Under the pieces are notes generated by a model. It saw only the letters and a program-made list of their open reading frames with translations. It did no database searches and was not told the origin of the DNA. This document shows, piece after piece, positions 19,423 through 32,551 of a DNA stretch of 64,000 bases; position 1 is the first letter of the stretch, and the number at the start of each line of letters is the position of its first letter. The DNA lies in contig CANKZG010000001.1 in the NCBI GenBank assembly GCA_947488435.1, positions 734,308 through 798,307 on the forward strand, written 5' to 3'. A program made the position numbers and the translations under genes. This DNA is from an uncultured Flavobacteriaceae bacterium (GTDB lineage Bacteria > Bacteroidota > Bacteroidia > Flavobacteriales > Flavobacteriaceae).

Positions 19423-20433
19423 TCAGAAATATAACTGTGCTGCCTTCGAAAATTTTGTTGCCATCCGTTTACGCAAACGTTCAGGCTGCAATACCTCCAT
19501 GGCCTCTCCAAAACCTAAAATCAGACGTTCCAATTCAAAATTCAATTTCACTTTTATATTAATTTCAACACTTCCATCTTCATTTTCTTTTTCAATAATC
19601 TGTGAATGATGTATAGGTTTAGTCACGACATAAGGAGCATTGTATTTGTCGATCCATAATTTAATATTGGAAGCCCGTTCCCCTTGGTTCACGGTAACAC
19701 CCACAACATCCTTGTAAAAGGTATCTGCATCAAATTCATAATTTGAATAAGAAATAGCGAAATCATAGTCAATCGAAATGATTCGGTCAAGGGCAAGATT
19801 AACTATGCCTTTGTTCTTATTTCCCATTCCTATTAGAAACCATCGGTTGTTAAACTCCTTCAATAAGCAGGGATGGAAAGTAATTACATTGGCAGTAGCA
19901 GCTTTAAAAGACTTGTACTCCACCTTTAAAACCACTTTTTTCTGAATGGCTTGATAGAGTTCGTCAAGCCAATGTAATCCTTTTAGATTCTCGTTCTTAT
20001 CTAGATGAATAATAGATGACTGATGCGTCTTCTCAGTATATACTTTATCTTCTAATCGTTGAATAATTCCACCCAATTCTGAAAACAAAGAAAAGTCTTT
20101 AAACTGCTTTAGCATTTCTACAGTTTCAGAAAGTACATTCATGTCGTTTTCAGTTATGGGGATATCCGTAATGGAATAATCCTCATCTTCGTATTTGTAA
20201 TACTTTCTATCATAAGCAACAATTGGAGCGTTGTAACCTAACTTATCACTTCGCATCAACTGAATATCGAGTTGCACCGTCCGTTTGCTCACATTCACTT
20301 CCCTACCTTCGTATTCATATAAGGCATCTGAACAGGCTTCAATTAAATCATCTAAAGTCCATTGACGGTAGTTGTTTTGAAGGCATTTGTCAATAGTTTT
20401 ATATCGGATTAGGGCGTTTTTGTTGAGGGCCAT
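19423..20433 (-). CDS. HTH + WYL-domain transcriptional regulator (recalled by resemblance)
   Basis: 336 aa; N-terminus MALNKNALIRYKTIDKCLQN...WTLDDLIEACSDAL...VSKRTVQLDIQLMRS matches my recollection of the winged-HTH N-terminus of Bacteroidetes WYL-domain proteins, followed by a ligand-binding-like middle region; co-operonic with the HD protein (1-nt overlap). Confidence 0.55.
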   Translation of the reverse strand: MALNKNALIRYKTIDKCLQNNYRQWTLDDLIEACSDALYEYEGREVNVSKRTVQLDIQLMRSDKLGYNAPIVAYDRKYYKYEDEDYSITDIPITENDMNVLSETVEMLKQFKDFSLFSELGGIIQRLEDKVYTEKTHQSSIIHLDKNENLKGLHWLDELYQAIQKKVVLKVEYKSFKAATANVITFHPCLLKEFNNRWFLIGMGNKNKGIVNLALDRIISIDYDFAISYSNYEFDADTFYKDVVGVTVNQGERASNIKLWIDKYNAPYVVTKPIHHSQIIEKENEDGSVEINIKVKLNFELERLILGFGEAMEVLQPERLRKRMATKFSKAAQLYF

Positions 20434-21047
20434 TATAATGTATTTAGTTCATTGTACAAATTTGCTCTTGCCTGTTTTTCAAAAGTGGATTGAAAACCCT
20501 TAGTTTGATAAATTGTGTTCTTGTCTAAAAAGTGATGAAGTACTTTCTTTCGTCCTTTACGATACATAATACCGGGAATTTTAGCATACTCTTTTCTAAT
20601 CTTCAGAGCATAATCTTGGTATACCTCTTCGGACTGTCCTAAAATTGCTAAATCAAAGTCTATTAACAATTTCTCATCATTCGATTTGCCATTATGGTGT
20701 TTCGTACAAAGAATAAGTGCTTCAATTCGTTGAATTCCATCTACATCAAATCCAATATCTTGTAATACCTGATTGGCTTTTATTGCACTTTTCTCCTCGT
20801 TATCCTTTTTCCAAATACTATAGACAAAATCATGATAGTAAATAGCTAAAAGCATCTCTTCAGTATTTTCGATATCATCTTTGAACTTATCGAAATAGCC
20901 ATAGAGTTCGGTAAGGTGATCTAGATTGTGGTATTTTCGAAACTTTTGTCCATAAGCGCCAGCTAGTTCATTCCATAAAGCGGCAACTTCATTTTCCGTT
21001 GGTACATATTTAGAGAAAATCTTGGCGTGTCTTTCTTTTAAGTCCAT
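20433..21047 (-). CDS. HD-domain metal-dependent phosphohydrolase (putative RNA-end-processing enzyme)
   Basis: 204 aa; H...LDH...YYHD motif pattern (YHNLDHLTELY, AIYYHDFVY) consistent with an HD fold. Confidence 0.45.
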   Translation of the reverse strand: MDLKERHAKIFSKYVPTENEVAALWNELAGAYGQKFRKYHNLDHLTELYGYFDKFKDDIENTEEMLLAIYYHDFVYSIWKKDNEEKSAIKANQVLQDIGFDVDGIQRIEALILCTKHHNGKSNDEKLLIDFDLAILGQSEEVYQDYALKIRKEYAKIPGIMYRKGRKKVLHHFLDKNTIYQTKGFQSTFEKQARANLYNELNTL

Positions 21048-21083
21048 AGTGTATTTGACTTAAAATTACAAGAACTCAACTAA

Positions 21084-21104
21084 CTACGCAAAATAATTGC
21101 GTAG
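21084..21104. promoter_or_regulatory. perfect 7-7 palindrome CTACGCA-aaataat-TGCGTAG in the divergent HD-WYL / NTase-rtcB promoter region (copy 1 of 3)
   Basis: Read directly from the sequence; arms are exact reverse complements; see copies at 22930 and 30414. Confidence 0.45.
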
Positions 21105-21136
21105 TACATCATCAAATTTGTATCATAATTTTAGAA

Positions 21137-21874
21137 ATGATGAAAAGTAAACTTAAAAATCTAGCAACCGACAAGAAAGTAGACATACTGTTTGCTTGTG
21201 AATCTGGAAGTAGGGCCTGGGACTTTGCTTCCCCAGATAGTGATTTTGATGTTAGATTCGTATATACACATCCAATAGACTGGTATTTGTCAATCTCGGA
21301 AAAACAAGATACCATCGATATAATGGATGGTGATTTTGATGCAGTCGGTTGGGAACTCAGAAAGAAGCTACGCTTACTTAAAAAGTCGAACGTACCTGCA
21401 TTGGAGCATTTATTTTCACCTATAATTTATATTGAAGAAAGTTCATCCATTAAGGAACTGCGAGCGATAGCGAAAGATTGCTTTTCTCCTGTAGCTTGTA
21501 TGTATCACTATTTAAGTATGAGCAAAAAATATGAAGAAAAACTGACTGGTGAAACTGTAAAACTAAAGAGTTTGTTTTATGCATTGCGAACAGCTTTGGC
21601 GGGCAAGTGGATACTTGAACACAATACGATGCCACCTGTTGTTTTTAGCAAGATGTTATCTCTTATAAAAAGGGATGAGGCTGACGAAATAAGACACTTG
21701 ATGACTATAAAATCGGAGAATAACGAAAGTTATTTACATTCCAGAAATGAGAAAGTCGTAAACCTTATAGCAAGTGTTTTAGTTGTTAATGAAAAGTTTG
21801 CAAAATCGCTTTCGGGTGGGAAACCTGATACTGATAGAATAGATAGTTTTTTATATAACACTTTGACCAAATGA
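21137..21874 (+). CDS. DNA-polymerase-beta-superfamily nucleotidyltransferase, most likely the RtcB-associated PF10127 (RlaP-like) family
   Basis: 245 aa; GSRAWDFASPDSDFDVRF = G[SG]-x9-13-DxD nucleotidyltransferase motif. Confidence 0.6.
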   Translation: MMKSKLKNLATDKKVDILFACESGSRAWDFASPDSDFDVRFVYTHPIDWYLSISEKQDTIDIMDGDFDAVGWELRKKLRLLKKSNVPALEHLFSPIIYIEESSSIKELRAIAKDCFSPVACMYHYLSMSKKYEEKLTGETVKLKSLFYALRTALAGKWILEHNTMPPVVFSKMLSLIKRDEADEIRHLMTIKSENNESYLHSRNEKVVNLIASVLVVNEKFAKSLSGGKPDTDRIDSFLYNTLTK

Positions 21875-22923
21875 AAACAATAGAAGAACTAAAAGCTTCA
21901 GGAAATATCATATTTGAATGTATTAGCGGTAGTAGAGCATACGGACTCGCTACCGCTTCTTCTGATACCGATATTCGTGGAGTTTTTGTACTGCCAAAAG
22001 AAAAGTATTATTCATTGGAATATGTAGGTCAAATAAATAATGTCACGAACGATATTGTTTATTATGAACTCAAAAAGTTCATAGAACTTCTTTCAAAAAA
22101 CAACCCTAACATTCTTGAATTGTTAAGTGTTCCTGAAGACTGCATACTCTCAAAGCATCCGCTATTCGATAAAGTCAAGTCTGAGTACTTTCTTTCAAGA
22201 TTGTGCAAAGACACCTTTGCGAATTACGCTTTTACCCAAATAAAAAAGGCAAGAGGATTGAAGAAAAAAATAGTTAATCCTGTTGAAAAAGAACGAAAAT
22301 ATGTTACTGACTTTTGTTTTGTTCGAAAAGAAAAGGGCGCTATGCCTTTGAATACTTTTTTAGAAAATGAAGGTTTCGAAGTGGACCATTGTGGATTGGC
22401 TAAAATAAGTCACATGAAAGATTGTTACAATCTCTTCTACAACCCTTCTATGAAGTATAGTGGCGTTGCAAGAGAAAATGCGAATGAAGTCTGCCTTAGT
22501 TCTATTCCAAAATCGGAAGTGCCAGCGGCTATTTTATATTTCAATCGAGATGGTTATTCATCCTATTGTAAAAAGTATAAAGAGTATTGGTCTTGGGTAG
22601 AAAAGAGAAATGATGAACGTTACAAGAGTAATATCTCACATAGCAAGAACTACGATGCTAAAAACATGATGCACACTTTTCGTCTTTTACATATGGCCAA
22701 AGAAATAGGGGCTGATAATAAAATTATGGTAAAAAGACCAGACCGAGATTTTCTGCTAGCTGTAAAAAATGCTGAATTCGAATATGAAGAGTTGGTAGAA
22801 AGAGCTGAAAAGTTAAAATCAGAATTGGAGGTTACATATGAAAAAGCTGATTTAATGGAACGCCCAGACTTGGATATAATAAATGAACTATTGGTTGAAA
22901 TAAGAGCTCAATTCTACGAATAA
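21871..22923 (+). CDS. second PF10127-like nucleotidyltransferase (paralog; ATGA overlap with upstream gene)
   Basis: 350 aa; ISGSRAYGLATASSDTDIRGVFVLP motif; extra C-terminal helical domain. Confidence 0.6.
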   Translation: MKTIEELKASGNIIFECISGSRAYGLATASSDTDIRGVFVLPKEKYYSLEYVGQINNVTNDIVYYELKKFIELLSKNNPNILELLSVPEDCILSKHPLFDKVKSEYFLSRLCKDTFANYAFTQIKKARGLKKKIVNPVEKERKYVTDFCFVRKEKGAMPLNTFLENEGFEVDHCGLAKISHMKDCYNLFYNPSMKYSGVARENANEVCLSSIPKSEVPAAILYFNRDGYSSYCKKYKEYWSWVEKRNDERYKSNISHSKNYDAKNMMHTFRLLHMAKEIGADNKIMVKRPDRDFLLAVKNAEFEYEELVERAEKLKSELEVTYEKADLMERPDLDIINELLVEIRAQFYE

Positions 22924-22929
22924 ATTTTA

Positions 22930-22950
22930 CTACGCAAAATAATTGCGCAC
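22930..22950. promoter_or_regulatory. palindrome copy 2 (CTACGCA-aaataat-TGCGCAC, slightly degenerate) between NTase-2 and rtcB
   Basis: 19/21 identical to the copy at 21084. Confidence 0.35.
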
Positions 22951-23040
22951 ATGAGTCGCAAGTTTGTACCGGAATCATAAAGAAGCCGGTTCGCCGACTT
23001 CATGTAGTGCCCCGTCGAACGTTGGAGTCGGTGGGGCTAA

Positions 23041-24908
<1,868 letters not shown>

Positions 24909-25058
24909 AATTATTCTCATATTTGCAACTGGATAAATAAATATAACAAGAGAAAATAGTAAAATATGCCAGATTATTTAAATCACATACCGGACGCTAA
25001 GAAGCTAGGATTGCATCGAATTGATGGGTAGACACTATTGAGAAAACGATACATTACT

Positions 25059-25088
25059 AGAGCGTCCAAGAAATTAGGCGCTTTTTTT
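25059..25088 (+). terminator. rho-independent terminator after the rtcB operon
   Basis: AGAGCGTCC-aagaaatta-GGCGCT followed by TTTTTTTT; homologous to the terminator at 28484. Confidence 0.5.
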
Positions 25089-25264
25089 TATATACATTTT
25101 TTAGAGAATTCTCAAAATTCTAAAAGAATGCTATTTGAAAGCTAAGCATTTGAAAAACAGCAAATTGATGAATTATGCTGCTATCTGTTAAACAACGGAC
25201 CAGGATACTTATGTTTTGATTTTATTATAACTAATTGATAATCAGTAATTTAAATTATATTTTC

Positions 25265-25295
25265 TTGTGTAATCCAAAAATCCGTTTTAGCTTTG
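25265..25295 (+). promoter_or_regulatory. Bacteroidetes sigmaA-type promoter (-33 TTG ... -7 TAgcTTTG), cassette A
   Basis: TTG at 25265-25267, 20-nt spacer, TAGCTTTG at 25288-25295; the whole block is duplicated at 28701-28731. Confidence 0.45.
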
Positions 25296-25299
25296 CATC

Positions 25300-25474
25300 G
25301 CAATACAGCAACAAAATTTATTAACTGAAGTATATATGACTTTTTCAAACACATATCAGAATACACTAAAAGCACCAGGTGCTTTATTAGTGTCGCTTCA
25401 GGACTTCTATAATACATAAAGCTACTATAGTTAATGATAGAAAGTCCGAAGCCCTAAAGTTTCGGACTTTTTTA
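25300..25474 (+). ncRNA. candidate leader / small RNA A (~170 nt) ending in a terminator-like hairpin upstream of rtcB2-prfH
   Basis: Promoter-to-hairpin unit; hairpin AGTCCGAA-gccctaaagt-TTCGGACT + TTTTT at 25443-25474; no ORF; 5' ~80 nt homologous to cassette B. Confidence 0.35.
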
Positions 25475-25576
25475 TGCTCTAATTTTTAGTGACACATCTT
25501 TCCGAAACATTTTATCAAATCAAGTATTGCTCTTCCATTTTTGGAACAGCCGTACTATTCCTTAAAATGAAATCTC

Positions 25577-26968
25577 ATGGGAAAGAAATTAAGCGGAAAG
25601 GACCTAATCAAATTGGGTTTTCCAAAGAACAATAGTATCAATATTACATTAGGTCAAATCAATAGATACCATAAGCGAAAAAATAAAGAGCAGGTATTGA
25701 TGGAAGCTAAAAAAGTATTGTTGCATCCTGAGGACTATCAAGGTGATGGGGTTTGGGGTAAGATAGCAGAAAGCTTGTTAGATCCAGTTGTGGTCAAAAA
25801 ACAAGTGCTGAATTCGGCAAGAGCACCTTTCCAAATCTATGGCGAGAACGAAATAGAGGAGCAAGCAAAATACCAATTGTATGATGCTTTAAAACTTCCG
25901 ATTTCTGTTGCTGGGGCTTTGATGCCCGATGCCCATAGTGGTTATGGCTTGCCTATCGGGGGTGTTTTGGCTACTAAGAATGCGGTGATTCCATATGGAG
26001 TTGGTGTTGATATCGGTTGTCGCATGTGTTTGACTATTTATCCGATTCCGGTTTCTTACCTCAAAGGAAAGAAACATCAATTGGCAAATATGCTCTCGGA
26101 GCATACCAAGTTCGGAATGCGGGAAACCCATAAGATAAAGCATGACCACGAAATCTTTGAGCGCGATGAATTTAAAAATATTCCGCTGATAAAAAGATTA
26201 AAGGATAAAGCGTACAAGCAATTGGGAACCTCAGGTGGTGGAAATCACTTTGTAGAATTCGGAAAGGTCACTATTACAGATGACGAGAACGAATGGGGGT
26301 TGAAATTGGGCGAATATCTAGGTGTGCTTTCCCATAGTGGTTCAAGAGGATTAGGTGCAAACATTGCAAAACATTACACCTATTTGGCAACAAAGCAATG
26401 TCCGTTACCCAAACATGTGCAGCATTTGGCATGGTTGGATTTGAATACCCATGACGGACAAGAATATTGGTTAGCTATGAATCTAGCAGGTGATTATGCA
26501 AAAGCATGTCACGATGATATTCACGCAAGACTAGCGAAACTTTTGGGTACAAAACCAGTAGTTAAAATAGATAACCATCACAATTTTGCTTGGAAACAAG
26601 AGGTAAATGGTGCCGAGTGTATTGTGCATAGAAAGGGAGCAACTCCCGCCGCTAAAGGCGAGTTGGGAATTATTCCTGGGTCAATGACAGCATCGGGTTA
26701 CATCGTAAAAGGTTTGGGCAATACAGAGAGTTTAAACTCTGCTTCCCATGGTGCTGGACGGCTTTTTTCAAGACGAAAGTGTAAAGAAACGTTTACACGA
26801 AGCGAAATTAAAAAGCAACTAGACTCAAATGAGGTAACACTAATTGGTGGAGGAATTGACGAAGCACCCATGGCCTACAAAAACATTGAAAAGGTCATGG
26901 CAAATCAACAAGAATTGGTTGAAGTACTCGGAACCTTTACACCCAAAATAGTACGAATGGATAAATAA
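25577..26968 (+). CDS. rtcB: RtcB-family RNA ligase (paralog 2, RtcB2-like, paired with prfH)
   Basis: 463 aa; DAHSGYGLPIGG, GGGNHFVEFG, SHSGSRGLG, NHHNFAW, SHGAGRLFS. Confidence 0.85.
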   Translation: MGKKLSGKDLIKLGFPKNNSINITLGQINRYHKRKNKEQVLMEAKKVLLHPEDYQGDGVWGKIAESLLDPVVVKKQVLNSARAPFQIYGENEIEEQAKYQLYDALKLPISVAGALMPDAHSGYGLPIGGVLATKNAVIPYGVGVDIGCRMCLTIYPIPVSYLKGKKHQLANMLSEHTKFGMRETHKIKHDHEIFERDEFKNIPLIKRLKDKAYKQLGTSGGGNHFVEFGKVTITDDENEWGLKLGEYLGVLSHSGSRGLGANIAKHYTYLATKQCPLPKHVQHLAWLDLNTHDGQEYWLAMNLAGDYAKACHDDIHARLAKLLGTKPVVKIDNHHNFAWKQEVNGAECIVHRKGATPAAKGELGIIPGSMTASGYIVKGLGNTESLNSASHGAGRLFSRRKCKETFTRSEIKKQLDSNEVTLIGGGIDEAPMAYKNIEKVMANQQELVEVLGTFTPKIVRMDK

Positions 26969-27060
26969 CAGATAGTAGTTAGCGACGGTATTTATAAAGC
27001 ATATTGAAAACCTAAGATTATTGGAATACCAACGCTAGCTACTTCTTTTAAAGAAATAAA

Positions 27061-27753
27061 ATGGAAAAGATAATTCAAATAACAACAGGTAGAGGCCCAG
27101 CGGAATGTAGCTGGGTCGTTGCCAAAGTACTCAAGCGATTTTTGGAAGAGACCAAATCGAGAGGATTTAAACATAGTATCCTCCATCGAGAAACAGGAAG
27201 CCAAAACGGGACAGTACAATCGGTGACTATCCGCTTGACAGGAAAAAATATGGAAGCATTTTTAGCAACTTGGTTGGGTACTATTCAGTGGATAGGCGTT
27301 TCAACATTTCGAAAATACCATAAACGAAAGAATTGGTTTATCGGGGCTTTCGAATTGAAACAAACGCAAACTACGAAAGTGGATGAGCGAGATATTTCGT
27401 TTCAAACCATGCGGAGCACCGGTCCTGGTGGCCAGAATATCAACAAGATTAATTCTGCTGTTCGGGCAATTCATACCCCCACAGGAGTACAAGTAGTTGC
27501 GATGGATAGTCGTTCTCAACATCAAAACAAAAAACTAGCAATAGCTCGGTTAAAAGAAAAAGTAAATGAAGCTAACCTAGAGCAGTTAAAGGGAAGCATG
27601 ACAGATCAATGGGAGAACCATTTGAATCTGCAACGAGGAAATCCGGTCCGAGTTTTTAAGGGTACAGATTTCAAACATCAAAAAGTGGATAAAAGTTATA
27701 AACCAAAACGGCAAAAGCTAAAAAACGATTTCAAACATCAAAAATGGGACTGA
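27061..27753 (+). CDS. prfH: peptide chain release factor H (RF-H)
   Basis: 230 aa class-I release-factor GGQ-domain protein (STGPGGQNINK) lacking a full codon-recognition domain; immediately downstream of an RtcB paralog as in the E. coli rtcB2-prfH pair. Confidence 0.75.
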   Translation: MEKIIQITTGRGPAECSWVVAKVLKRFLEETKSRGFKHSILHRETGSQNGTVQSVTIRLTGKNMEAFLATWLGTIQWIGVSTFRKYHKRKNWFIGAFELKQTQTTKVDERDISFQTMRSTGPGGQNINKINSAVRAIHTPTGVQVVAMDSRSQHQNKKLAIARLKEKVNEANLEQLKGSMTDQWENHLNLQRGNPVRVFKGTDFKHQKVDKSYKPKRQKLKNDFKHQKWD

Positions 27754-28298
27754 CAATAGCCGATACTTATTACTTAAAGGCACGAGCAGCAATGGGAGGT
27801 TTTTGCCCTGATTGGGACGAAGTTTGTGAATCACTGAACTACGCCCTGTCTTACGATGAAAATCATTGTGCCTCCCTTTGTCTTTTAGGTAAAGTTTATG
27901 CAGGAAATTTGAATCAGTATACTGAAGCTTTCGATTGCTTTGACAAAGTAATTGCAATTGACAGTTACTATATGGATGTCTATCCTGCCTACGCAAAATA
28001 TCTTATTTGGGCCGATGAAATTGAAAGAGCAACTAAACTAATTGCTTTTGCTCTTACCATAAAAGGGATATCAAAAGGAAGTTTATTTTGGCTTTCCGCG
28101 TATGCGTCTGAAACCAAGGAAGCTTATAAAGATGCTCTGAAACATCTTAACAAAGCTAAGAAGTATTCCTATAATGACGATTACTTTTCTTTCATTGAAG
28201 ATGAAGAAAATAGAATTAAAAAGAAATTGAAATTGGATAAATCCAAAGTAAAAAAGAAGAAATCTTCATCTAAAAAAAAGAAGAAAAAGAATAAATAG
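27744..28298 (+). CDS. TPR-like protein with C-terminal poly-lysine tail
   Basis: 184 aa; helical repeats; ends KKKLKLDKSKVKKKKSSSKKKKKKNK encoded by A-rich tracts; overlaps prfH stop by 10 nt. Confidence 0.5.
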   Translation: MGLTIADTYYLKARAAMGGFCPDWDEVCESLNYALSYDENHCASLCLLGKVYAGNLNQYTEAFDCFDKVIAIDSYYMDVYPAYAKYLIWADEIERATKLIAFALTIKGISKGSLFWLSAYASETKEAYKDALKHLNKAKKYSYNDDYFSFIEDEENRIKKKLKLDKSKVKKKKSSSKKKKKKNK

Positions 28299-28483
28299 TA
28301 GTAACACAACGTTTAAAAATAACATCTTTGTAAAACAAATGACACCGAGAAAGTTACATATCATCCAACAAATAGAGCTTTGGCTCTGCGATTTTCGCTC
28401 AGAATATAGTGAGCGAAACGGGCGCTATGTGACTTTATCCAACAGTTGATTCTATGTAAATCACTTATTAAACGATAAAATGA

Positions 28484-28514
28484 AAGCGTCCAATTACAAT
28501 TGGGCGCTTTTTTT
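28484..28514 (+). terminator. rho-independent terminator after the prfH operon
   Basis: AAGCGTCCAATT-ac-AATTGGGCGCTT followed by TTTTTTT. Confidence 0.55.
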
Positions 28515-28700
28515 GTGGAATTTTTTAAAGTAAAATGCGAAAAGTAGTAAACGAATAAAATAGCGTAGTTGAAACAGAAAACAATTGGTAGACAGACAGT
28601 TGTAATAAATGTTTAAAGTCCGCAATATGACGGACAGGGATTCTATTGTTCATATTTTAATTTAACTATCTGATTATCAATAAATTAAATTAATTTTTTC

Positions 28701-28731
28701 TTGTATAATTTAAAAATCGTTTTCATCTTTG
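28701..28731 (+). promoter_or_regulatory. Bacteroidetes-type promoter, cassette B (-33 TTG ... CATCTTTG)
   Basis: Same spacing (20 nt) and flanks as cassette A; sits upstream of the tRNA array. Confidence 0.4.
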
Positions 28732-28737
28732 CACCGT

Positions 28738-28948
28738 CATAAATTATAAACCCATTACCAATGGAATCTTTAAAAAGACATATACAATTATTGGAACTAC
28801 ATCTCTGTTCGCCGAAATGGTTTGAACGGTTTTATAGTGATCAACTGTCCATTTGTAAACAAAGGAGAAATACGTGTATCATGTGTTGACGTCATAGACA
28901 CCATTCACATATGTACAGAGCATCTCCGATAAAGAGGTGCTTTTTTTA
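28738..28948 (+). ncRNA. candidate leader / small RNA B (~200 nt) ending in a hairpin + T7 tract 22 nt before the first tRNA
   Basis: Hairpin GCATCTC-cgataaa-GAGGTGC + TTTTTTT at 28920-28948; 5' part homologous to leader A. Confidence 0.35.
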
Positions 28949-28969
28949 TGCGATTATTTTTTGAAAAAA

Positions 28970-29057
28970 GGAAGAGCAAGCCAAAGGGCGGTGGCCACAC
29001 TCTTGAAAAGTGTTCGGAGTAACCAGTCTCGTGTGGGTTCGACTCCCACCTCTTCCG
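28970..29057 (+). tRNA. tRNA-Ser(TGA), class II
   Basis: Hand-folded: acceptor GGAAGAG/CTCTTCC, anticodon arm ACACT-CTTGAAA-AGTGT, long variable arm, T-arm GTGGG-TTCGACT-CCCAC, G73; 88 nt. Confidence 0.8.
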
Positions 29058-29062
29058 CAACT

Positions 29063-29149
29063 GGAGGGTAGGCAAATACTGGTTTGTTGCGCTCGCCTGC
29101 TAAGCAAGTCTACCATAAGGTAGTGAAGGTTCAATTCCTTTGCCCTCCG
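29063..29149 (+). tRNA. tRNA-Ser(GCT), class II; the only array member with an encoded CCA
   Basis: Acceptor GGAGGGT/GCCCTCC (one G-U), loop CTGCTAA, variable-arm hairpin CTACC-ataa-GGTAG, G73 then CCA; one C-A mismatch in anticodon stem. Confidence 0.7.
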
Positions 29150-29156
29150 CCAAATT

Positions 29157-29229
29157 GACAAGGTGGCTGAATAGTTAAGGCAATGGTCTGCAAAATCATT
29201 TTTTATGAGTTCGAATCTCATCCTTGTCT
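29157..29229 (+). tRNA. tRNA-Cys(GCA)
   Basis: 73 nt; acceptor GACAAGG/CCTTGTC, loop CTGCAAA, T-arm ATGAG-TTCGAAT-CTCAT, U73 (Cys identity). Confidence 0.8.
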
Positions 29230-29240
29230 CTAAATATTAT

Positions 29241-29323
29241 GGAAGTATTGAGCAATTGGCTGGCTCGCTTGACTGTAAATCAGGTTCAGAAATGACATGT
29301 AGGTTCGAGTCCTGCTGCTTCCA
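29241..29323 (+). tRNA. tRNA-Tyr(GTA), class II
   Basis: Acceptor GGAAGTA/TGCTTCC, anticodon arm CTTGA-CTGTAAA-TCAGG, long variable arm, A73. Confidence 0.75.
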
Positions 29324-29327
29324 CAAC

Positions 29328-29398
29328 GCGTCTGTGGTGTAATGGTAGCATTTGGGTCTCCAAAACCTATGATTGAGGTTCGAATCCTTAAGGACGCG
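29328..29398 (+). tRNA. tRNA-Trp(CCA)
   Basis: Anticodon arm TGGGT-CTCCAAA-ACCTA as in E. coli tRNA-Trp, T-arm TGAGG-TTCGAAT-CCTTA, G73; one mismatch at the acceptor-stem base. Confidence 0.65.
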
Positions 29399-29401
29399 CA
29401 A

Positions 29402-29474
29402 AGTACCGTAGTTCAAAGGCTAGAGCGCCCGACTGTCTATCGGGAAGGTACGGGTTCGAGTCCCGTCGGTACTG
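29402..29474 (+). tRNA. tRNA-Asp(GTC) with unusual U37
   Basis: Acceptor AGTACCG/CGGTACT, anticodon arm CCCGA-CTGTCTA-TCGGG, T-arm ACGGG-TTCGAGT-CCCGT resembles E. coli tRNA-Asp; G73. Confidence 0.65.
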
Positions 29475-29479
29475 CGAAA

Positions 29480-29552
29480 CTGGGAAGATAACGGTGGTTA
29501 GTTTACCCGCTTTGGAAGCGGGAGGTCGCAAGTTCGAATCTTGCTTCCCAGA
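29480..29552 (+). tRNA. tRNA-Pro(TGG)
   Basis: Acceptor CTGGGAA/TTCCCAG, anticodon arm CCCGC-TTTGGAA-GCGGG, T-arm GCAAG-TTCGAAT-CTTGC, A73; only 5 nt after tRNA-Asp. Confidence 0.8.
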
Positions 29553-29614
29553 CGACTTAGTCAAATCAAGTTTACTTGAATTTGATTAGCAAGGAGTAGT
29601 TGTAAGAAAGACGA

Positions 29615-29636
29615 AGTCAATCTTGCTTCTCAGACT
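29615..29636 (+). pseudogene. 3' remnant of tRNA-Pro (T-loop 3' half + acceptor 3' strand), direct repeat of 29531-29552
   Basis: AGTCAATCTTGCTTCTCAGAC vs GTTCGAATCTTGCTTCCCAGAC (17/20). Confidence 0.5.
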
Positions 29637-29639
29637 TTT

Positions 29640-29712
29640 GCTCTGTTCGTATAATGGTTAAGTACGCCTGACTTTCTATCAGGAAATAGGGGTTCGATTC
29701 CCCTACAGAGTA
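29640..29712 (+). tRNA. tRNA-Glu(TTC) with unusual U37
   Basis: Acceptor GCTCTGT/ACAGAGT (G1-U72), D-stem CGTA/TACG, anticodon arm CCTGA-CTTTCTA-TCAGG, T-arm AGGGG-TTCGATT-CCCCT. Confidence 0.65.
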
Positions 29713-29717
29713 CAAAA

Positions 29718-29790
29718 TGAGGTATAACTCAGTTGGTAGAGTACCGTGCTTTTAACACGGGAGTCTTAGGTTCGAGTCCTAATGCCTCAA
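29718..29790 (+). tRNA. tRNA-Lys(TTT)
   Basis: U1-A72 acceptor TGAGGTA/TGCCTCA, D-arm ACTC-AGTTGGTA-GAGT, anticodon arm CCGTG-CTTTTAA-CACGG, A73. Confidence 0.75.
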
Positions 29791-29795
29791 CAATT

Positions 29796-29868
29796 GCAGG
29801 GATGGCGAAATGGCAAACGCAGCTGGTTTAGAACCAGTACTCTGAGAGTTCGAATCTCTCTCCCTGTA
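29796..29868 (+). tRNA. type-I tRNA with Leu anticodon TAG (Leu-like D-arm, variable arm only 5 nt)
   Basis: Acceptor GCAGGGA/TCCCTGT, D-arm GCG-AAATGGCAAA-CGC (Leu-like), anticodon arm GCTGG-TTTAGAA-CCAGT, variable ACTCT, T-arm GAGAG-TTCGAAT-CTCTC, A73. Confidence 0.5.
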
Positions 29869-29875
29869 CTATGAT

Positions 29876-29949
29876 GCCCCACTAGCCCAACCGGCAGAGG
29901 CAAAGGACTTAAAATCCTTAAAGTCCAAGTTCGAATCTTGGGTGGGGTA
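29876..29949 (+). tRNA. type-I tRNA with Leu anticodon TAA (variable arm 5 nt)
   Basis: Anticodon arm AAGGA-CTTAAAA-TCCTT nearly identical to E. coli tRNA-Leu(UAA) arm, but variable region only AAAGT; T-arm CCAAG-TTCGAAT-CTTGG, A73. Confidence 0.5.
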
Positions 29950-29954
29950 CAAAT

Positions 29955-30079
29955 AAGCTTATGGTGTAATGGATAGCACGCAGGATTTAACTCACGCTCT
30001 TTTTACTTGAAATAAGGAGTTCGTGAATGCAGAAAAGCATTTCTAACCCTGAGGTATGAGTTCAAATCTTGTTAGGCTT
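29955..30079 (+). ncRNA. tRNA-like element (125 nt): canonical acceptor/D-arm/T-arm with a ~60-nt insertion in the anticodon region
   Basis: 5' AAGCTTA-TG-GTG..CAC D-arm (11-mer TGGTGTAATGG shared with tRNA-Trp); 3' ATGAG-TTCAAAT-CTTGT T-arm + TAGGCTT acceptor strand pairing 7/7 (one G-U) with the 5' end; split CAGG/CCTG anticodon stem. Confidence 0.3.
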
Positions 30080-30085
30080 GCAAAT

Positions 30086-30157
30086 AGACCCGTGATGTAA
30101 CGGTTAGCATACAAGGTTTTGATCCTTGTTGTAAAGGTTCAAATCCTTTCGGGTCTT
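30086..30157 (+). tRNA. tRNA-Gln(TTG)
   Basis: Acceptor AGACCCG/CGGGTCT 7/7, D-stem ATGT/GCAT, anticodon arm CAAGG-TTTTGAT-CCTTG, T-arm AAAGG-TTCAAAT-CCTTT. Confidence 0.7.
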
Positions 30158-30162
30158 CAAAT

Positions 30163-30236
30163 GGTGTCTCTAGCTTATTTTGGTAAAGCGTCCCACTGTG
30201 AATGGGAAGAACAGGGTTCGAGTCCCCGAGTACACC
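30163..30236 (+). tRNA. tRNA-His(GTG) with encoded G-1 pairing C73
   Basis: Anticodon arm TCCCA-CTGTGAA-TGGGA, D-stem GCTT/AAGC, extra 5' G opposite C73 (His hallmark); two mismatches near the acceptor-stem base. Confidence 0.6.
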
Positions 30237-30242
30237 CAAAAG

Positions 30243-30315
30243 GGAACAGTAGCAAAGATGATCAATGCGGCGGATTGAAGATCCGACGATACAGGTTCGA
30301 GTCCTGTCTGTTCCA
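30243..30315 (+). tRNA. tRNA-Phe(GAA)
   Basis: Acceptor GGAACAG/CTGTTCC 7/7, anticodon arm GCGGA-TTGAAGA-TCCGA, T-arm ACAGG-TTCGAGT-CCTGT, A73. Confidence 0.7.
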
Positions 30316-30319
30316 CAAC

Positions 30320-30392
30320 AGGAGTATAGTTCAATTGGACAGAACGCTGGGCTACGAACCTAGAAATGCGAGTTCGAGTCTTGCTACTCCTA
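30320..30392 (+). tRNA. tRNA-Arg(ACG)
   Basis: Acceptor AGGAGTA/TACTCCT 7/7, D-stem GTTC/GAAC, anticodon arm CTGGG-CTACGAA-CCTAG, T-arm GCGAG-TTCGAGT-CTTGC, A73. Confidence 0.8.
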
Positions 30393-30413
30393 CTAAAACA
30401 AGAGAAATTTTAG

Positions 30414-30434
30414 CTACGCATAATCATTGCGTAA
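30414..30434. promoter_or_regulatory. palindrome copy 3 (CTACGCA-taatcat-TGCGTAA) inside the tRNA array
   Basis: 6-bp arms TACGCA/TGCGTA with 7-nt A/T spacer, same architecture as copies at 21084 and 22930. Confidence 0.35.
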
Positions 30435-30498
30435 TTATGGTTCAATTTTGCCTTGTAATAAAAGCAGTCCTTATAGGGAAAACGGGGCTGTAATAGTT

Positions 30499-30530
30499 CC
30501 CTGCAGCAAATTTAATGCTGCAGGGTTTTG
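30499..30530 (+). terminator. strong rho-independent terminator closing the first tRNA block
   Basis: 9-bp GC-rich stem CCCTGCAGC-aaatttaat-GCTGCAGGG followed by TTTTG. Confidence 0.7.
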
Positions 30531-30536
30531 ATAAAT

Positions 30537-30740
30537 ACCTCTTTAGCTCAAAGGGAAGAGCTGTGGTAAAGGATATTGATCGTAGCCACGGAGTGATTGG
30601 AAGACGTTGTTAGCGGCGTGCCTGCTAATGAATAGAATTTGCAGAAGCACCGAAATGAACAAGATTCAAAATAGGGAAGCGCATTTATAGCCAATCTGTT
30701 CGTTTCGACGAAAGTGCCAGTTCGAATCTGGCAAGAGGTA
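30537..30740 (+). ncRNA. tRNA-like element (204 nt): acceptor stem 7/7, D-arm and T-arm intact, anticodon arm replaced by ~130 nt of structured sequence
   Basis: 5' ACCTCTT-TA-GCTC-aaagggaa-GAGC; 3' GCCAG-TTCGAAT-CTGGC-AAGAGGT-A; interior has several hairpins incl. a UUCG tetraloop (TTCGT-ttcg-ACGAA) but no anticodon stem-loop. Confidence 0.3.
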
Positions 30741-30750
30741 CAAAGTTCAT

Positions 30751-30780
30751 TGAAAAAAAAATTCTGCCTAGGCAGAATTA
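30751..30780 (-). terminator. rho-independent terminator for minus-strand transcripts
   Basis: Plus strand reads AAAAAAAA-ATTCTGCC-tagg-GGCAGAAT, i.e. hairpin followed by U8 on the minus strand. Confidence 0.5.
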
Positions 30781-30920
30781 ACAATATCAAGCTGGTCTTG
30801 TTGGGTGTTTCTGTATAGCACTATTGTGTGAAGCGTTGCCATAGGGTATAATGTTTTCATGTACAACTTGACTTGATGGTTTCGATTGTTCGCCAAAAAA
30901 CGATCACCACTCTGTGAGTC

Positions 30921-31012
30921 ATGGGTTCGAATCCCATCAGTCCCAAATGGGACTGTAGTTCAGTTAGGTTAGAACAACAGACGGATGCGCAGGTTCGACT
31001 CCTGCCAGCGGC
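30921..31012 (+). pseudogene. tRNA debris: T-arm + 3' acceptor (ATGGG-TTCGAAT-CCCAT-CAGTCCC-A) immediately followed by its matching 5' acceptor + D-arm (GGGACTG-TA-GTTC...GAAC) and a second T-arm lacking an anticodon arm
   Basis: Hand-folded; looks like a permuted or tandem-decayed tRNA pair; no complete cloverleaf. Confidence 0.4.
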
Positions 31013-31023
31013 CACTTTTTTTA

Positions 31024-31067
31024 GGCCCTGTAGCTCAGTTGGCTAGAGCACTACACTCATAATGTAG
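31024..31067 (+). pseudogene. 5' two-thirds of a tRNA-Met/Ile2(CAT): acceptor 5' strand, D-arm, anticodon arm; T-arm and 3' end missing
   Basis: GGCCCTG-TA-GCTC-agttggcta-GAGC-A-CTACA-CTCATAA-TGTAG, then no TTCGA T-loop and no CAGGGCC partner. Confidence 0.45.
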
Positions 31068-31450
31068 GTTTCTAAAGCTGACCATCTTTTAAAACTGGTC
31101 TCCAAGCCCTGTTAGGCTTAAAATGACAAAAACCGTAGGTATAAGTCAGTTGGTTTTTCTTCGGATAAATCAACAGTCTTGAAACTACTTTGAAATAGTG
31201 AATTTTTGATGCGAAAGGCAATTTCTTTTTGAATATCCTTCCCTCGGAAAAACCAATAAAAAGTATTGGCAACGTCGACCGAAGCATACCAAAAAAACAA
31301 ATCGTAACGAGCTTCGAAAACCAATATTTCCGTAACGGATAGATGAGTTATAGTTGCGGTTTTTTAAAAGAGAAAAACAAATTAATACTAAATAAGAAAT
31401 CGTTTAACCCGTTCGTCCGTCACTAGACTGGCGGACACAAATTTTAAGTA

Positions 31451-32551
31451 ATGAAAAGAGTAAGAATCAATGCAGGAAGAGTAGGTTTGGTCTTCAAAAG
31501 AGGCGATTACCAAAGAGTAATTACCCAAGGTACACACTGGGTAAGCTTCAGAAATATGGTTAAGGTATATGACCTTACCAAGGCCTTTGTTGCCCCTATA
31601 GCATTAGAAATCTTGCTACAGGACCAGGGCTTGGAAGCTATGTTGCATATCATCGAAGTTAAGGATGCTGAATTGGCTCTAGTTTCTGAAAACGGAAACT
31701 TGAAACAAGTCCTTACTGCTGGTAAGTACGCTTTCTGGAAAGGTCTGATAAACTTCGAGTTCGTTATGGCGGACTTGAGTAAGATCTATATCACTGAAGC
31801 TATCAGCAAAGCAATGTTGAGCCATCCTCAGTTGCGAGCGTATGTTCGTACTTTGGAAGTTGCGGCTTACGAAAAGGCTGTCCTCTTGGTTGATGATGTT
31901 TATGTCAAAACGCTGGAAAGTGGTACCTACCATTTCTGGAAGAACGACATCTCTATCAAAATTGCCAGAGCGGACATGCGTCAATTGCAATTGGAGATTT
32001 CTGGTCAAGAATTGTTGACCAAAGACAAGGCTGCTATTCGTATCAATTTCTATACACAGTATAAAGTTATAGATATCGAGAAGGCTTTGCTAGGCAACAA
32101 AGACTATGAAAAGCAGTTGTATATCGCAATGCAATTAGTATTACGGACCTATATTGGCACCTATACCTTGGATGAGCTTCTAGAACGAAAAGAAAGCATC
32201 GCTGAAGCTGTGTTTGGGGATATCAAAACTGCCGCTACCCAATTGGGTGTTGCAATTTTGAGTTGTGGTATTCGTGATGTTATCCTGACCGGTGAAATGA
32301 AAGATATTATGAACCAGGTTTTGGTTGCTCAAAAGAGAGCTCAAGCGAATATCATTACCCGACGTGAAGAAACTGCGTCTACCAGAAGCTTGCTGAACAC
32401 CGCGAAGTTGATGGAAGACAACGAAATGCTCTACAAACTGAAGGAAATGGAATACGTTGAAAAGATCGCCGAAAAAATCGGTGAGATTACCGTCTCTGGC
32501 AATGGAGGTATGGTAAAACAATTGAAAGAGATTTTCTCAGTCAATAAGTAA
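31451..32551 (+). CDS. SPFH/band-7 (slipin-like) domain protein with extra N-terminal domain
   Basis: 366 aa; C-terminal half has SPFH-like pattern (…VLVAQKRAQANIITRREETAS…). Confidence 0.55.
   Translation: MKRVRINAGRVGLVFKRGDYQRVITQGTHWVSFRNMVKVYDLTKAFVAPIALEILLQDQGLEAMLHIIEVKDAELALVSENGNLKQVLTAGKYAFWKGLINFEFVMADLSKIYITEAISKAMLSHPQLRAYVRTLEVAAYEKAVLLVDDVYVKTLESGTYHFWKNDISIKIARADMRQLQLEISGQELLTKDKAAIRINFYTQYKVIDIEKALLGNKDYEKQLYIAMQLVLRTYIGTYTLDELLERKESIAEAVFGDIKTAATQLGVAILSCGIRDVILTGEMKDIMNQVLVAQKRAQANIITRREETASTRSLLNTAKLMEDNEMLYKLKEMEYVEKIAEKIGEITVSGNGGMVKQLKEIFSVNK

Follow-up and report, generated by a model that had tools for sequence, protein, structure and literature searches.

In E. 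coli, PrfH and RtcB2 act one after the other on ribosomes attacked by colicin E3 or CdiA-CT; the peptide is released first, and the cleaved rRNA is then religated (Tian et al., PNAS 2022, PMC9304027; PMC9223846). A further subfamily, PrfH-CT, comprises proteins of 225-250 amino acids (aa), which occur overwhelmingly in Flavobacteriia, with 352 genomes counted in this class (Tian et al., Sci Adv 2026, PMC12829566). The extra basic C-terminal helix of these proteins occupies the empty mRNA channel, and PrfH-CT therefore releases peptides from non-stop ribosomes and from ribosomes cut at A1493 (PMC12829566). The protein of Capnocytophaga gingivalis (CgPrfH) frees peptides on damaged as well as on intact non-stop ribosomes, and in the working model of that study CgRtcB is assumed to reseal the 30S subunit afterwards (PMC12829566); the PrfH-RtcB pair is thus already known from Bacteroidota. 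This study deals with such a pair and with the leader preceding it in a stretch of 64,000 nucleotides (nt) from an uncultured Flavobacteriaceae bacterium (assembly GCA_947488435.1, contig CANKZG010000001.1, positions 734,308 to 798,307 of the forward strand), which is called the window in the following.

Two other kinds of systems are relevant for the regulation of these genes. In Anabaena, rtcB and the long tRNA arrays (L-arrays) have promoter repeats in common, and translational stress induces the arrays (Santamaria-Gomez et al., NAR 2021, PMC8421152; TrcR, PMC10272220). Furthermore, leaders are known which sense the stalling of ribosomes, for example PA5471.1 upstream of armZ (PMC12057347).

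The window was compared with 80 related Flavobacteriaceae loci, which were taken from contigs with one genome per species and gave, together with the window, 81 sources. The gene pair itself only adds one more member to the published PrfH-CT group of Flavobacteriia. The features that likely go beyond the published literature are a leader-peptide attenuator, a promoter core common to the operon and a tRNA array, and a PrfH partner ligase outside the RtcB2 family. Taken together, it is quite probable that PrfH-CT, an RtcB-family ligase and a tetratricopeptide repeat (TPR) protein form an operon for peptide release and resealing, which is run by the leader attenuator.

The RtcB-PrfH-TPR operon

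The following features belong to the operon and its spacer:

25577-26968, + strand: RtcB-B, RtcB-family 3'-phosphate RNA ligase of 463 aa, conserved partner of PrfH (PF01139, E=1e-83)
26969-27060, + strand: RtcB-PrfH spacer of 92 nt with a long inverted repeat forming a hairpin (spacer alignment of 20 loci)
27061-27753, + strand: PrfH of the PrfH-CT subfamily, 230 aa, with rRNA-recognition domain, GGQ domain and basic C-terminal tail at about residues 205-230 (TIGR03072, PDB match)
27744-28298, + strand: TPR protein of 184 aa with a poly-lysine C-terminus, third gene of the operon (weak Pfam TPR matches)

A second RtcB paralog followed after 92 nt by a protein with the GGQ motif (STGPGGQNINK) had been described in a sequence-only reading of this DNA, and the coordinates in the list of open reading frames (ORFs) agree exactly with this description. 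The other paralog, RtcB-A (462 aa), is encoded upstream of RtcB-B at 23053-24441. The GGQ residues are located at positions 123-125 of the 230-aa protein (nt 27427-27435).

This protein scored 229.4 bits on the NCBIfam equivalog model TIGR03072 (release_prfH, IPR017509; cut-off 166.65), on which E. coli PrfH as a control reached 328.8 bits. The best matches in the PDB were 9mor and 9mq4 (peptide chain release factor H, 231 aa; E=1.5e-88), followed by E. coli PrfH (7sa4, E=2.7e-41), and RF2 appeared only at 1e-21. With the C. gingivalis protein (9mor) it shares 60.7% identical residues in a gapless alignment of 224 residues, which includes the tail. The RF-1 domain with the GGQ motif (PF00472, E=7e-24) would also be expected of a fragment of an ordinary RF1 or RF2 or of an ArfB-type hydrolase; the scores on the RF2, RF1 and ArfB models (104.9, 84.3 and 47.4 bits) were, however, far below the respective cut-offs of 370, 400 and 100, and together with the order of the PDB matches this renders such an origin extremely improbable. 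A grouping with RF1, RF2 or ArfB, or the lack of a GGQ domain, had been named beforehand as speaking against an RF-H. Since the GGQ domain is present and no such grouping was obtained in the profile searches, neither objection arises. The 230-aa protein is therefore assigned to PrfH, which bears out the RF-H reading.

The same reading had regarded the protein as lacking a codon-recognition domain. This proved to be inaccurate, because residues 3-198 match the RF2 model from its position 118 to 315. In its N-terminal half the protein can also be aligned to the recognition domains of E. coli PrfH (EcPrfH) and CgPrfH, and the residues corresponding to N50, R85 and K86 of CgPrfH are conserved there. 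The protein thus has kept a diverged domain of the codon-recognition type (a decoding or rRNA-recognition domain), and only RF domain 1 is missing.

The basic tail had been overlooked, and by alignment it places the protein in the PrfH-CT subfamily. It aligns without gaps to residues 207-226 of CgPrfH, with the basic residues K211, K214, R217, K221 and K225 in place of K212, K215, R218, K222 and K226. At the positions of K216 and R223 basic residues are absent, so that five of the seven basic tail contacts are kept, which is the number reported across the subfamily (PMC12829566). The length of 230 aa also falls within the range of PrfH-CT. The closest PrfH proteins are encoded in Maribacter genomes (92% identity), and across genera the identity is only 59-92%. 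A look-up of the exact 230-aa sequence gave no record.

The ligase RtcB-B is more conserved (76-97% identity across genera), and a homolog search with it gave only close relatives with more than 80% identity. Relative to E. coli RtcB1 (EcRtcB1) it possesses an N-terminal extension of about 75 aa, the first part of which is common to RtcB-A. In an alignment of four sequences D75, C78, N167, H168, H185, R189, H281, H337, R341 and R345 (EcRtcB1 numbering) are invariant; we take these ten positions to be the residues found essential in mutagenesis work on the E. coli enzyme, including the histidine that accepts GMP. Both paralogs have an N-terminal GxxLIxxGF motif with a sub-threshold match to tRNA_NucTran2_2. 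As an identity for the extensions, the sub-threshold Pfam matches (WWE_3, E=5e-4; tRNA_NucTran2_2, E=9e-4) were discarded, as they are not interpretable.

The affiliation of the ligase was examined with E. coli RtcB1, RtcB2 (EcRtcB2) and full-length PrfH as controls. On TIGR03073 (release_rtcB, cut-off 271.8 bits), RtcB-B scored 154.6 bits, close to EcRtcB1 (143.9) and far from EcRtcB2 (617.5). The model NF007153 (cut-off 407) gave the same picture (RtcB-B 188.3, EcRtcB1 173.2, EcRtcB2 642.5 bits), as did BLASTP (EcRtcB1 33% identity and 184 bits; EcRtcB2 28% and 114 bits). By these comparisons RtcB-B is placed outside the E. coli RtcB2 sequence family, the clade which forms SSN cluster 2 in PMC9304027, and nearer to RtcB1. 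The earlier label RtcB2 is hence adequate as a description of gene context, i.e. of an RtcB linked to PrfH, but not as the name of a clade. The substrates of E. coli RtcB1 and RtcB2 are mutually exclusive (PMC9304027), and for an RtcB1-like ligase an action on cleaved 16S rRNA is therefore not assured; gene context rather than homology suggests that RtcB-B reseals this rRNA. A linked possibility is that the partner of PrfH belongs to a lineage recruited independently of the proteobacterial RtcB2. This raises the question of whether the repair of 16S rRNA evolved more than once within RtcB, or whether this ligase has a different substrate.

RtcB-B precedes PrfH, and a TPR gene follows PrfH, in 79 of the 80 related loci each, and the complete trio is kept in 78. 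The conserved unit consists of three genes, RtcB-PrfH-TPR, and not of a pair. In the window, the start of the TPR gene overlaps the stop of prfH by 10 nt. The encoded proteins form a small family confined to Flavobacteriaceae, whose sole annotation is TPR protein. A TPR accessory gene beside RFH-RtcB was already recorded by Burroughs and Aravind 2019 (PMC6514570). As a guess, the TPR protein with its lysine tail probably serves as a scaffold or ribosome-binding helper. According to the spacers of 20 loci, the long inverted repeat between rtcB-B and prfH is specific to the Maribacter-type clade, and the spacer has only 10-20 nt in Flavobacterium and Kordia. In some relatives (L001, 7762-8532; Flavobacterium loci, e.g. 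L048), a highly charged protein of about 256 aa or a CxxC-containing protein is encoded between the leader terminator and rtcB-B. These inserts are probably the charged-helical or ZnR accessory proteins of PMC6514570.

The leader, its promoter core and the proposed attenuation

Upstream of rtcB-B an intergenic region of 668 nt is located, with the following features:

25061-25089, + strand: terminator-like hairpin and U-run closing the upstream unit of RtcB-A and orf156 (sequence; repeat family D11; intergenic alignment)
25195-25305, + strand: promoter/operator core of about 110 nt (direct repeats D5/D8; BLASTN)
25325-25331, + strand: segment 1 of the putative attenuator, CUGAAGU, shortly before the start codon of the leader, pairing with segment 2
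25336-25419, + strand: leader ORF of 27 codons, MTFSNTYQNTLKAPGALLVSLQDFYNT, stop codon TAA (ORF at the same place in relatives)
25363-25393, + strand: hairpin inside the leader ORF with 92% pairing; each of its 6 pairs shows changes on both sides
25395-25404, + strand: segment 2 of the putative attenuator, GCUUCAGGAC, leader codons 20-23, pairing with segment 1 or 3
25444-25473, + strand: intrinsic terminator made of segment 3 (GUCCGAAGC, 25444-25452), a loop, segment 4 (GUUUCGGAC, 25459-25467) and U6

The leader downstream of the core was conserved across genera, unusually strongly for non-coding DNA. A leader ORF of 26-28 codons was present in 76 of the 81 sources (the window and 75 of the 80 loci), with exactly 27 codons in 68 of the 76 and 26 or 28 in the remainder. 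Of the five loci lacking it, at least two are truncated at a contig end, and rtcB-B is missing from one. All these ORFs start with ATG and end in TAA or TAG, indels are multiples of 3 nt, and 21-31 nt separate the stop codon from the terminator in every case. In all 76 sources the leader is situated upstream of rtcB-prfH on the same strand. The leader peptides of the window and of Flavobacterium share only 7-11% identity, with the exception of the stretch encoded by segment 2.

Three helices compete in this leader. Helix 1:2 was paired in 98% of the cells of alignment A2 and in 92.5% of those of A4, with compensatory changes from CG to UA and from CG to AU; by clade, the matched variants are CUGAAG/CUUCAG, CCGAAG/CUUCGG and ACGAAG/CUUCGU. 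The antiterminator helix 2:3 was 98.3% paired in 36 sequences, and none of 500 shuffles reached the observed score. In the Flavobacterium clade it changes from GC to UA and from AU to GC, matched by the change in segment 4. Helix 3:4 of the terminator was paired to 95-98% and likewise shows compensatory changes. Its 10-bp core has a free energy of -14.6 kcal/mol in comparison to -9.4 for the antiterminator; the balance favours the terminator (off) state by about 4 kcal/mol, and the fold of the whole leader has a z of -4.7. A short ORF, which is presumably translated, overlaps an antiterminator arm competing with an intrinsic terminator, and this is the anatomy of an attenuator. From it we infer that the conserved leader acts as a ribosome-stalling attenuator. 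Rfam searches over 24900-31500 with E up to 5 gave only chance-level matches, so that the leader falls into no known RNA family, and in a literature search no published description of such a leader was found for rtcB or prfH.

The promoter core contains an imperfect palindrome (about 25222-25257), a -33-like CTTG (25264-25267), a spacer of 20 nt and the -7 box TAGCTTTG (25288-25295). The latter fits TAnnTTTG, which we take to be the Bacteroidetes -7 consensus. A second copy of the core with 75-77% identity was detected at 28630-28741, where it precedes a small ORF and the tRNA array, and a copy of the terminator module 25061-25089 precedes this second cassette (28486-28514). The whole terminator-plus-core module thus recurs at 28486-28741, and in related loci BLASTN found the core at both positions. 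The repeated core and the conservation of the leader across genera confirm a promoter and leader cassette before the gene pair, as had been noted from the DNA earlier. The second cassette includes the following features:

28761-28889: conserved cysteine-rich ORF of 42 aa, MESLKRHIQLLELHLCSPKWFERFYSDQLSICKQRRNTCIMC, after the second core and before the tRNA array
28917-28950: terminator between the 42-aa ORF and the tRNA array

Among relatives, indels in the 42-aa ORF are in frame, and its product gave no Pfam match. The leader of this cassette (28742-28969) was considered as a twin attenuator and provisionally set aside; with z = -0.87 it folded no better than shuffled sequences, and no convincing antiterminator was seen.

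By analogy with attenuators of the trp type, the following sequence of events is proposed. Transcription of the operon would start at the Bacteroidetes-type promoter and then meet the leader-peptide attenuator. If the leader is not translated, helices 1:2 and 3:4 would both form, and the operon would be off because the terminator is on. Complete translation of the 27 codons would likewise lead to termination, because the 3' half of segment 2 is then occupied by the ribosome that has reached the stop codon. If, by contrast, a ribosome initiates and stalls within the first approximately 15 codons, segment 2 would be free to form the antiterminator 2:3, and transcription could read through into rtcB-prfH-TPR. 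Damage to the decoding centre, cleavage of tRNAs or inhibitors of elongation may cause such stalling, all of them conditions against which PrfH and RtcB are directed. Judging from the characterised proteins of C. gingivalis and E. coli, PrfH would then hydrolyse the peptidyl-tRNA, and after separation of the subunits the ligase would reseal 2',3'-cyclic-phosphate and 5'-OH ends. The repair operon would thus be induced by the very failure of translation that it repairs.

As an extension, which we propose tentatively and rate slightly below an even chance, the leader might be a translation-competence sensor, coordinated through the common promoter core with a spare tRNA array in a self-limiting "translation-damage regulon" of Flavobacteriaceae. 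If this applies, stalled ribosomes themselves induce the genes for ribosome repair. A published account of how prfH-rtcB operons are switched was not found. At least 75 genomes at species level possess the leader, among them strains of Flavobacterium johnsoniae, a species amenable to genetics.

Several points weigh against an attenuator-controlled operon for ribosome repair. The compensatory changes cluster by clade and therefore represent few independent events, possibly one or two per helix; otherwise segments 2, 3 and 4 are nearly invariant. Segment 2 also encodes a conserved peptide motif (LRDF/LRGLF), so that constraint on the RNA is inseparable from constraint on the peptide. The terminated leader of about 170 nt could also represent an independent stable small RNA, and a weak promoter-like site, CATTTTTG, lies between terminator and rtcB at about 25537-25544. 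With the strong terminator (-14.6 kcal/mol plus U-tract), this site would suit an independent small RNA or a gene for a small protein of 27 aa, beside which rtcB-prfH uses a promoter of its own. The additional 256-aa gene between terminator and rtcB in some relatives points in the same direction, as does the second cassette, which drives the conserved 42-aa ORF and also ends in a terminator, without a clear alternative pairing. A small-protein gene is, however, difficult to reconcile with a peptide of such low identity between the window and Flavobacterium, in which nevertheless the length of the ORF, its start, its stop and its distance to the terminator are fixed. Moreover, segment 2 can pair with segment 1 as well as with the 5' arm of the terminator, with compensatory changes in each case, and the leader always lies upstream of rtcB-prfH on the same strand. 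An independent RNA or small-protein gene is for these reasons considered unlikely in comparison to the attenuator.

The function of the operon may also be seen differently. The RtcB1-like scores of RtcB-B and its failure on the RtcB2 models count against the repair of rRNA, and the role assigned to the TPR protein is a guess. PrfH-CT could mainly serve as an ArfB-like housekeeping back-up for non-stop ribosomes, while the ligase repairs tRNAs, and the locus would then be a response to tRNA damage. Non-stop rescue is conferred by the C-tail of PrfH, ArfA and ArfB are both absent from C. gingivalis, and the neighbours of the operon are centred on tRNA (two RlaP nucleotidyltransferases, the array of 15 tRNA genes and tRNA-like RNAs). 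On the other hand, CgPrfH acts also on the damaged ribosome via its recognition domain, whose residues N50, R85 and K86 are conserved in the window. PrfH and RtcB stay adjacent in 79 of the 80 loci, in contrast to the variable occurrence of RlaP, RtcB-A and the tRNA array, and a separate RlaP-RlaP-RtcB-A module for tRNA repair is already present. A locus devoted to tRNA damage thus appears rather improbable, and release of the peptide followed by resealing of the ribosome is preferred as the function of the operon.

The neighbouring RNA-repair island and the tRNA array

Beside the operon, further genes for RNA repair and tRNAs were identified on both sides:

19423-20433, - strand: WYL/WCX regulator, followed by a gene of no assigned family, upstream of rtcB-B
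21137-21874: RlaP nucleotidyltransferase 1 of 245 aa, upstream of RtcB-A
21871-22923: RlaP-like nucleotidyltransferase 2 of 350 aa, upstream of RtcB-A
24438-24908: unannotated ORF, translationally coupled to RtcB-A
28970-30393: 15 tRNA genes on the same strand with spacers of 2-10 nt
31451-32551: Band-7/SPFH gene, directly after two permuted tRNA-like modules

The genes for RlaP, the RlaP-like protein, the divergent RtcB-A and the coupled ORF, which are divergent from the WYL/WCX regulator, are assigned to a second RNA-repair module at 19423-24908. The sequence of RtcB-A is divergent, and its catalytic residues are intact. RlaP adds one or two nucleotides to damaged 3' ends of RNA and restores the function of repaired tRNAs. 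A repeated motif ending in a small hairpin (CTACGCAAAATAATTGCG, repeat family D4) was found before the first RlaP gene (21064-21101), between the second one and RtcB-A (22910-22947) and directly after the last tRNA of the array (30394-30431); it could be a processing or operator site.

The tRNA genes are arranged in the order Ser, Ser, Cys, Tyr, Trp, Asp, Pro, Glu, Lys, Leu, Leu, Gln, His, Phe, Arg. This order is conserved in loci of Aggregatimonas, Zobellia, Kordia and Aquimarina, but sister species do not have the array or carry only a decayed form. In this respect it resembles the supernumerary L-arrays (PMC8421152) and is probably one of them. The two tRNA-Leu of the array (UAG and UAA, 29796-29950) have only 74-75 nt and no long variable arm, which was observed in several genera; the tRNA-Leu(UAA) outside the array in locus L025 has the normal 85 nt. 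The filler of 86 nt between tRNA-Pro and tRNA-Glu (29554-29639) recurs in L002 and L005 and is present in three tandem copies in the Kordia locus L018.

The anticodon loop of tRNA-Arg(UCU) (29951-30085) is split by an insert of 47 nt (29989-30035). A tRNA intron, as called by ARAGORN with relaxed settings, was considered for this insert. It occurs in L006 and L013 as well, is reversed in L009 and is absent from the intact orthologs in L001, L003, L005 and L012, and it is therefore an insertion and not an intron.

Downstream of the array lies a conserved RNA of about 205 nt (30533-30755), whose identity across genera amounts to 74-96%. Its acceptor, D and T arms are tRNA-like, and the anticodon arm is replaced by a branched domain of about 150 nt; covariation was detected in the T arm and in a hairpin resembling a variable arm. 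No match to this RNA was obtained in Rfam. It is followed by two tandem permuted tRNA-like modules (30875-31110), in which a T arm and a loop-closed acceptor stem precede the D arm. Their matches to YrlA were sub-threshold (38 and 29 bits), and they are conserved even in loci without the array tRNAs. Their position before the Band-7/SPFH gene fits the Band-7-associated tRNA-like or Y-RNA-like cofactors of RtcB systems that are predicted by Burroughs and Aravind.

The flanks of the window carry ordinary chromosomal genes of Bacteroidota, such as those for a PorZ-type sensor kinase, a LytTR regulator and an M19 dipeptidase. Together with the base composition and the closest relatives, these genes assign the window to a Maribacter-like member of the Flavobacteriaceae. 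An origin of the island from a phage or mobile element was rejected on account of these flanks, and because megablast gave no match among 50,697 phage records. Additionally, a single ORF of 3,490 aa is located on the + strand at 42662-53134.

Comparison with described systems

The closest described counterpart is the pair PrfH/CgRtcB of C. gingivalis, which stems from the same class (Flavobacteriia) and agrees in the length of PrfH (231 aa, compared with 230 aa in the window), in the basic tail and in the adjacent RtcB gene. The window belongs to a different family, the Maribacter-like Flavobacteriaceae. In the C. gingivalis paper (PMC12829566), neither a leader nor a TPR gene nor a tRNA array is described, and a text search for TPR genes and gene neighbours gave no hits. 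With RtcB2-PrfH of E. coli the locus shares the two-gene logic and a homologous PrfH (38% identity). However, the E. coli protein has only 204 aa and lacks the C-tail, the genes rtcB2 and prfH overlap by 4 nt, whereas 92 nt separate the genes of the window, and a TPR gene is absent from the E. coli operon. In addition, the ligase of the window differs from EcRtcB2 in its N-terminal extension and its place outside the RtcB2 family.

The modules of Burroughs and Aravind (PMC6514570) resemble the locus in the TPR gene beside RFH-RtcB, in the charged-helical and zinc-ribbon proteins of relatives, in RlaP beside RtcB and in a Band-7 protein adjoining tRNA-like or YrlA-like RNAs. They are predictions from comparative genomics, and in the accessible texts neither a leader-peptide attenuator nor a shared promoter cassette is mentioned.

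The trn L-array of Anabaena is likewise a long, patchily distributed and supernumerary tRNA array near rtcB, and in both cases a common promoter element serves array and ligase gene. Anabaena, however, belongs to another phylum and uses direct repeats of 9 nt over the -10 box instead of a palindromic core of about 110 nt. A homolog of TrcR was not identified, and a WYL regulator is encoded nearby instead.

Finally, the putative attenuator corresponds to those of the trp type and to stalling-sensing leaders in its short leader ORF, the alternative pairing of four segments, the intrinsic terminator and the off state by default. In contrast to these, it has no run of regulatory codons, and segment 1 is located upstream of the start codon. 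It would also differ from them in the genes under its control, which encode factors for the rescue and repair of ribosomes.

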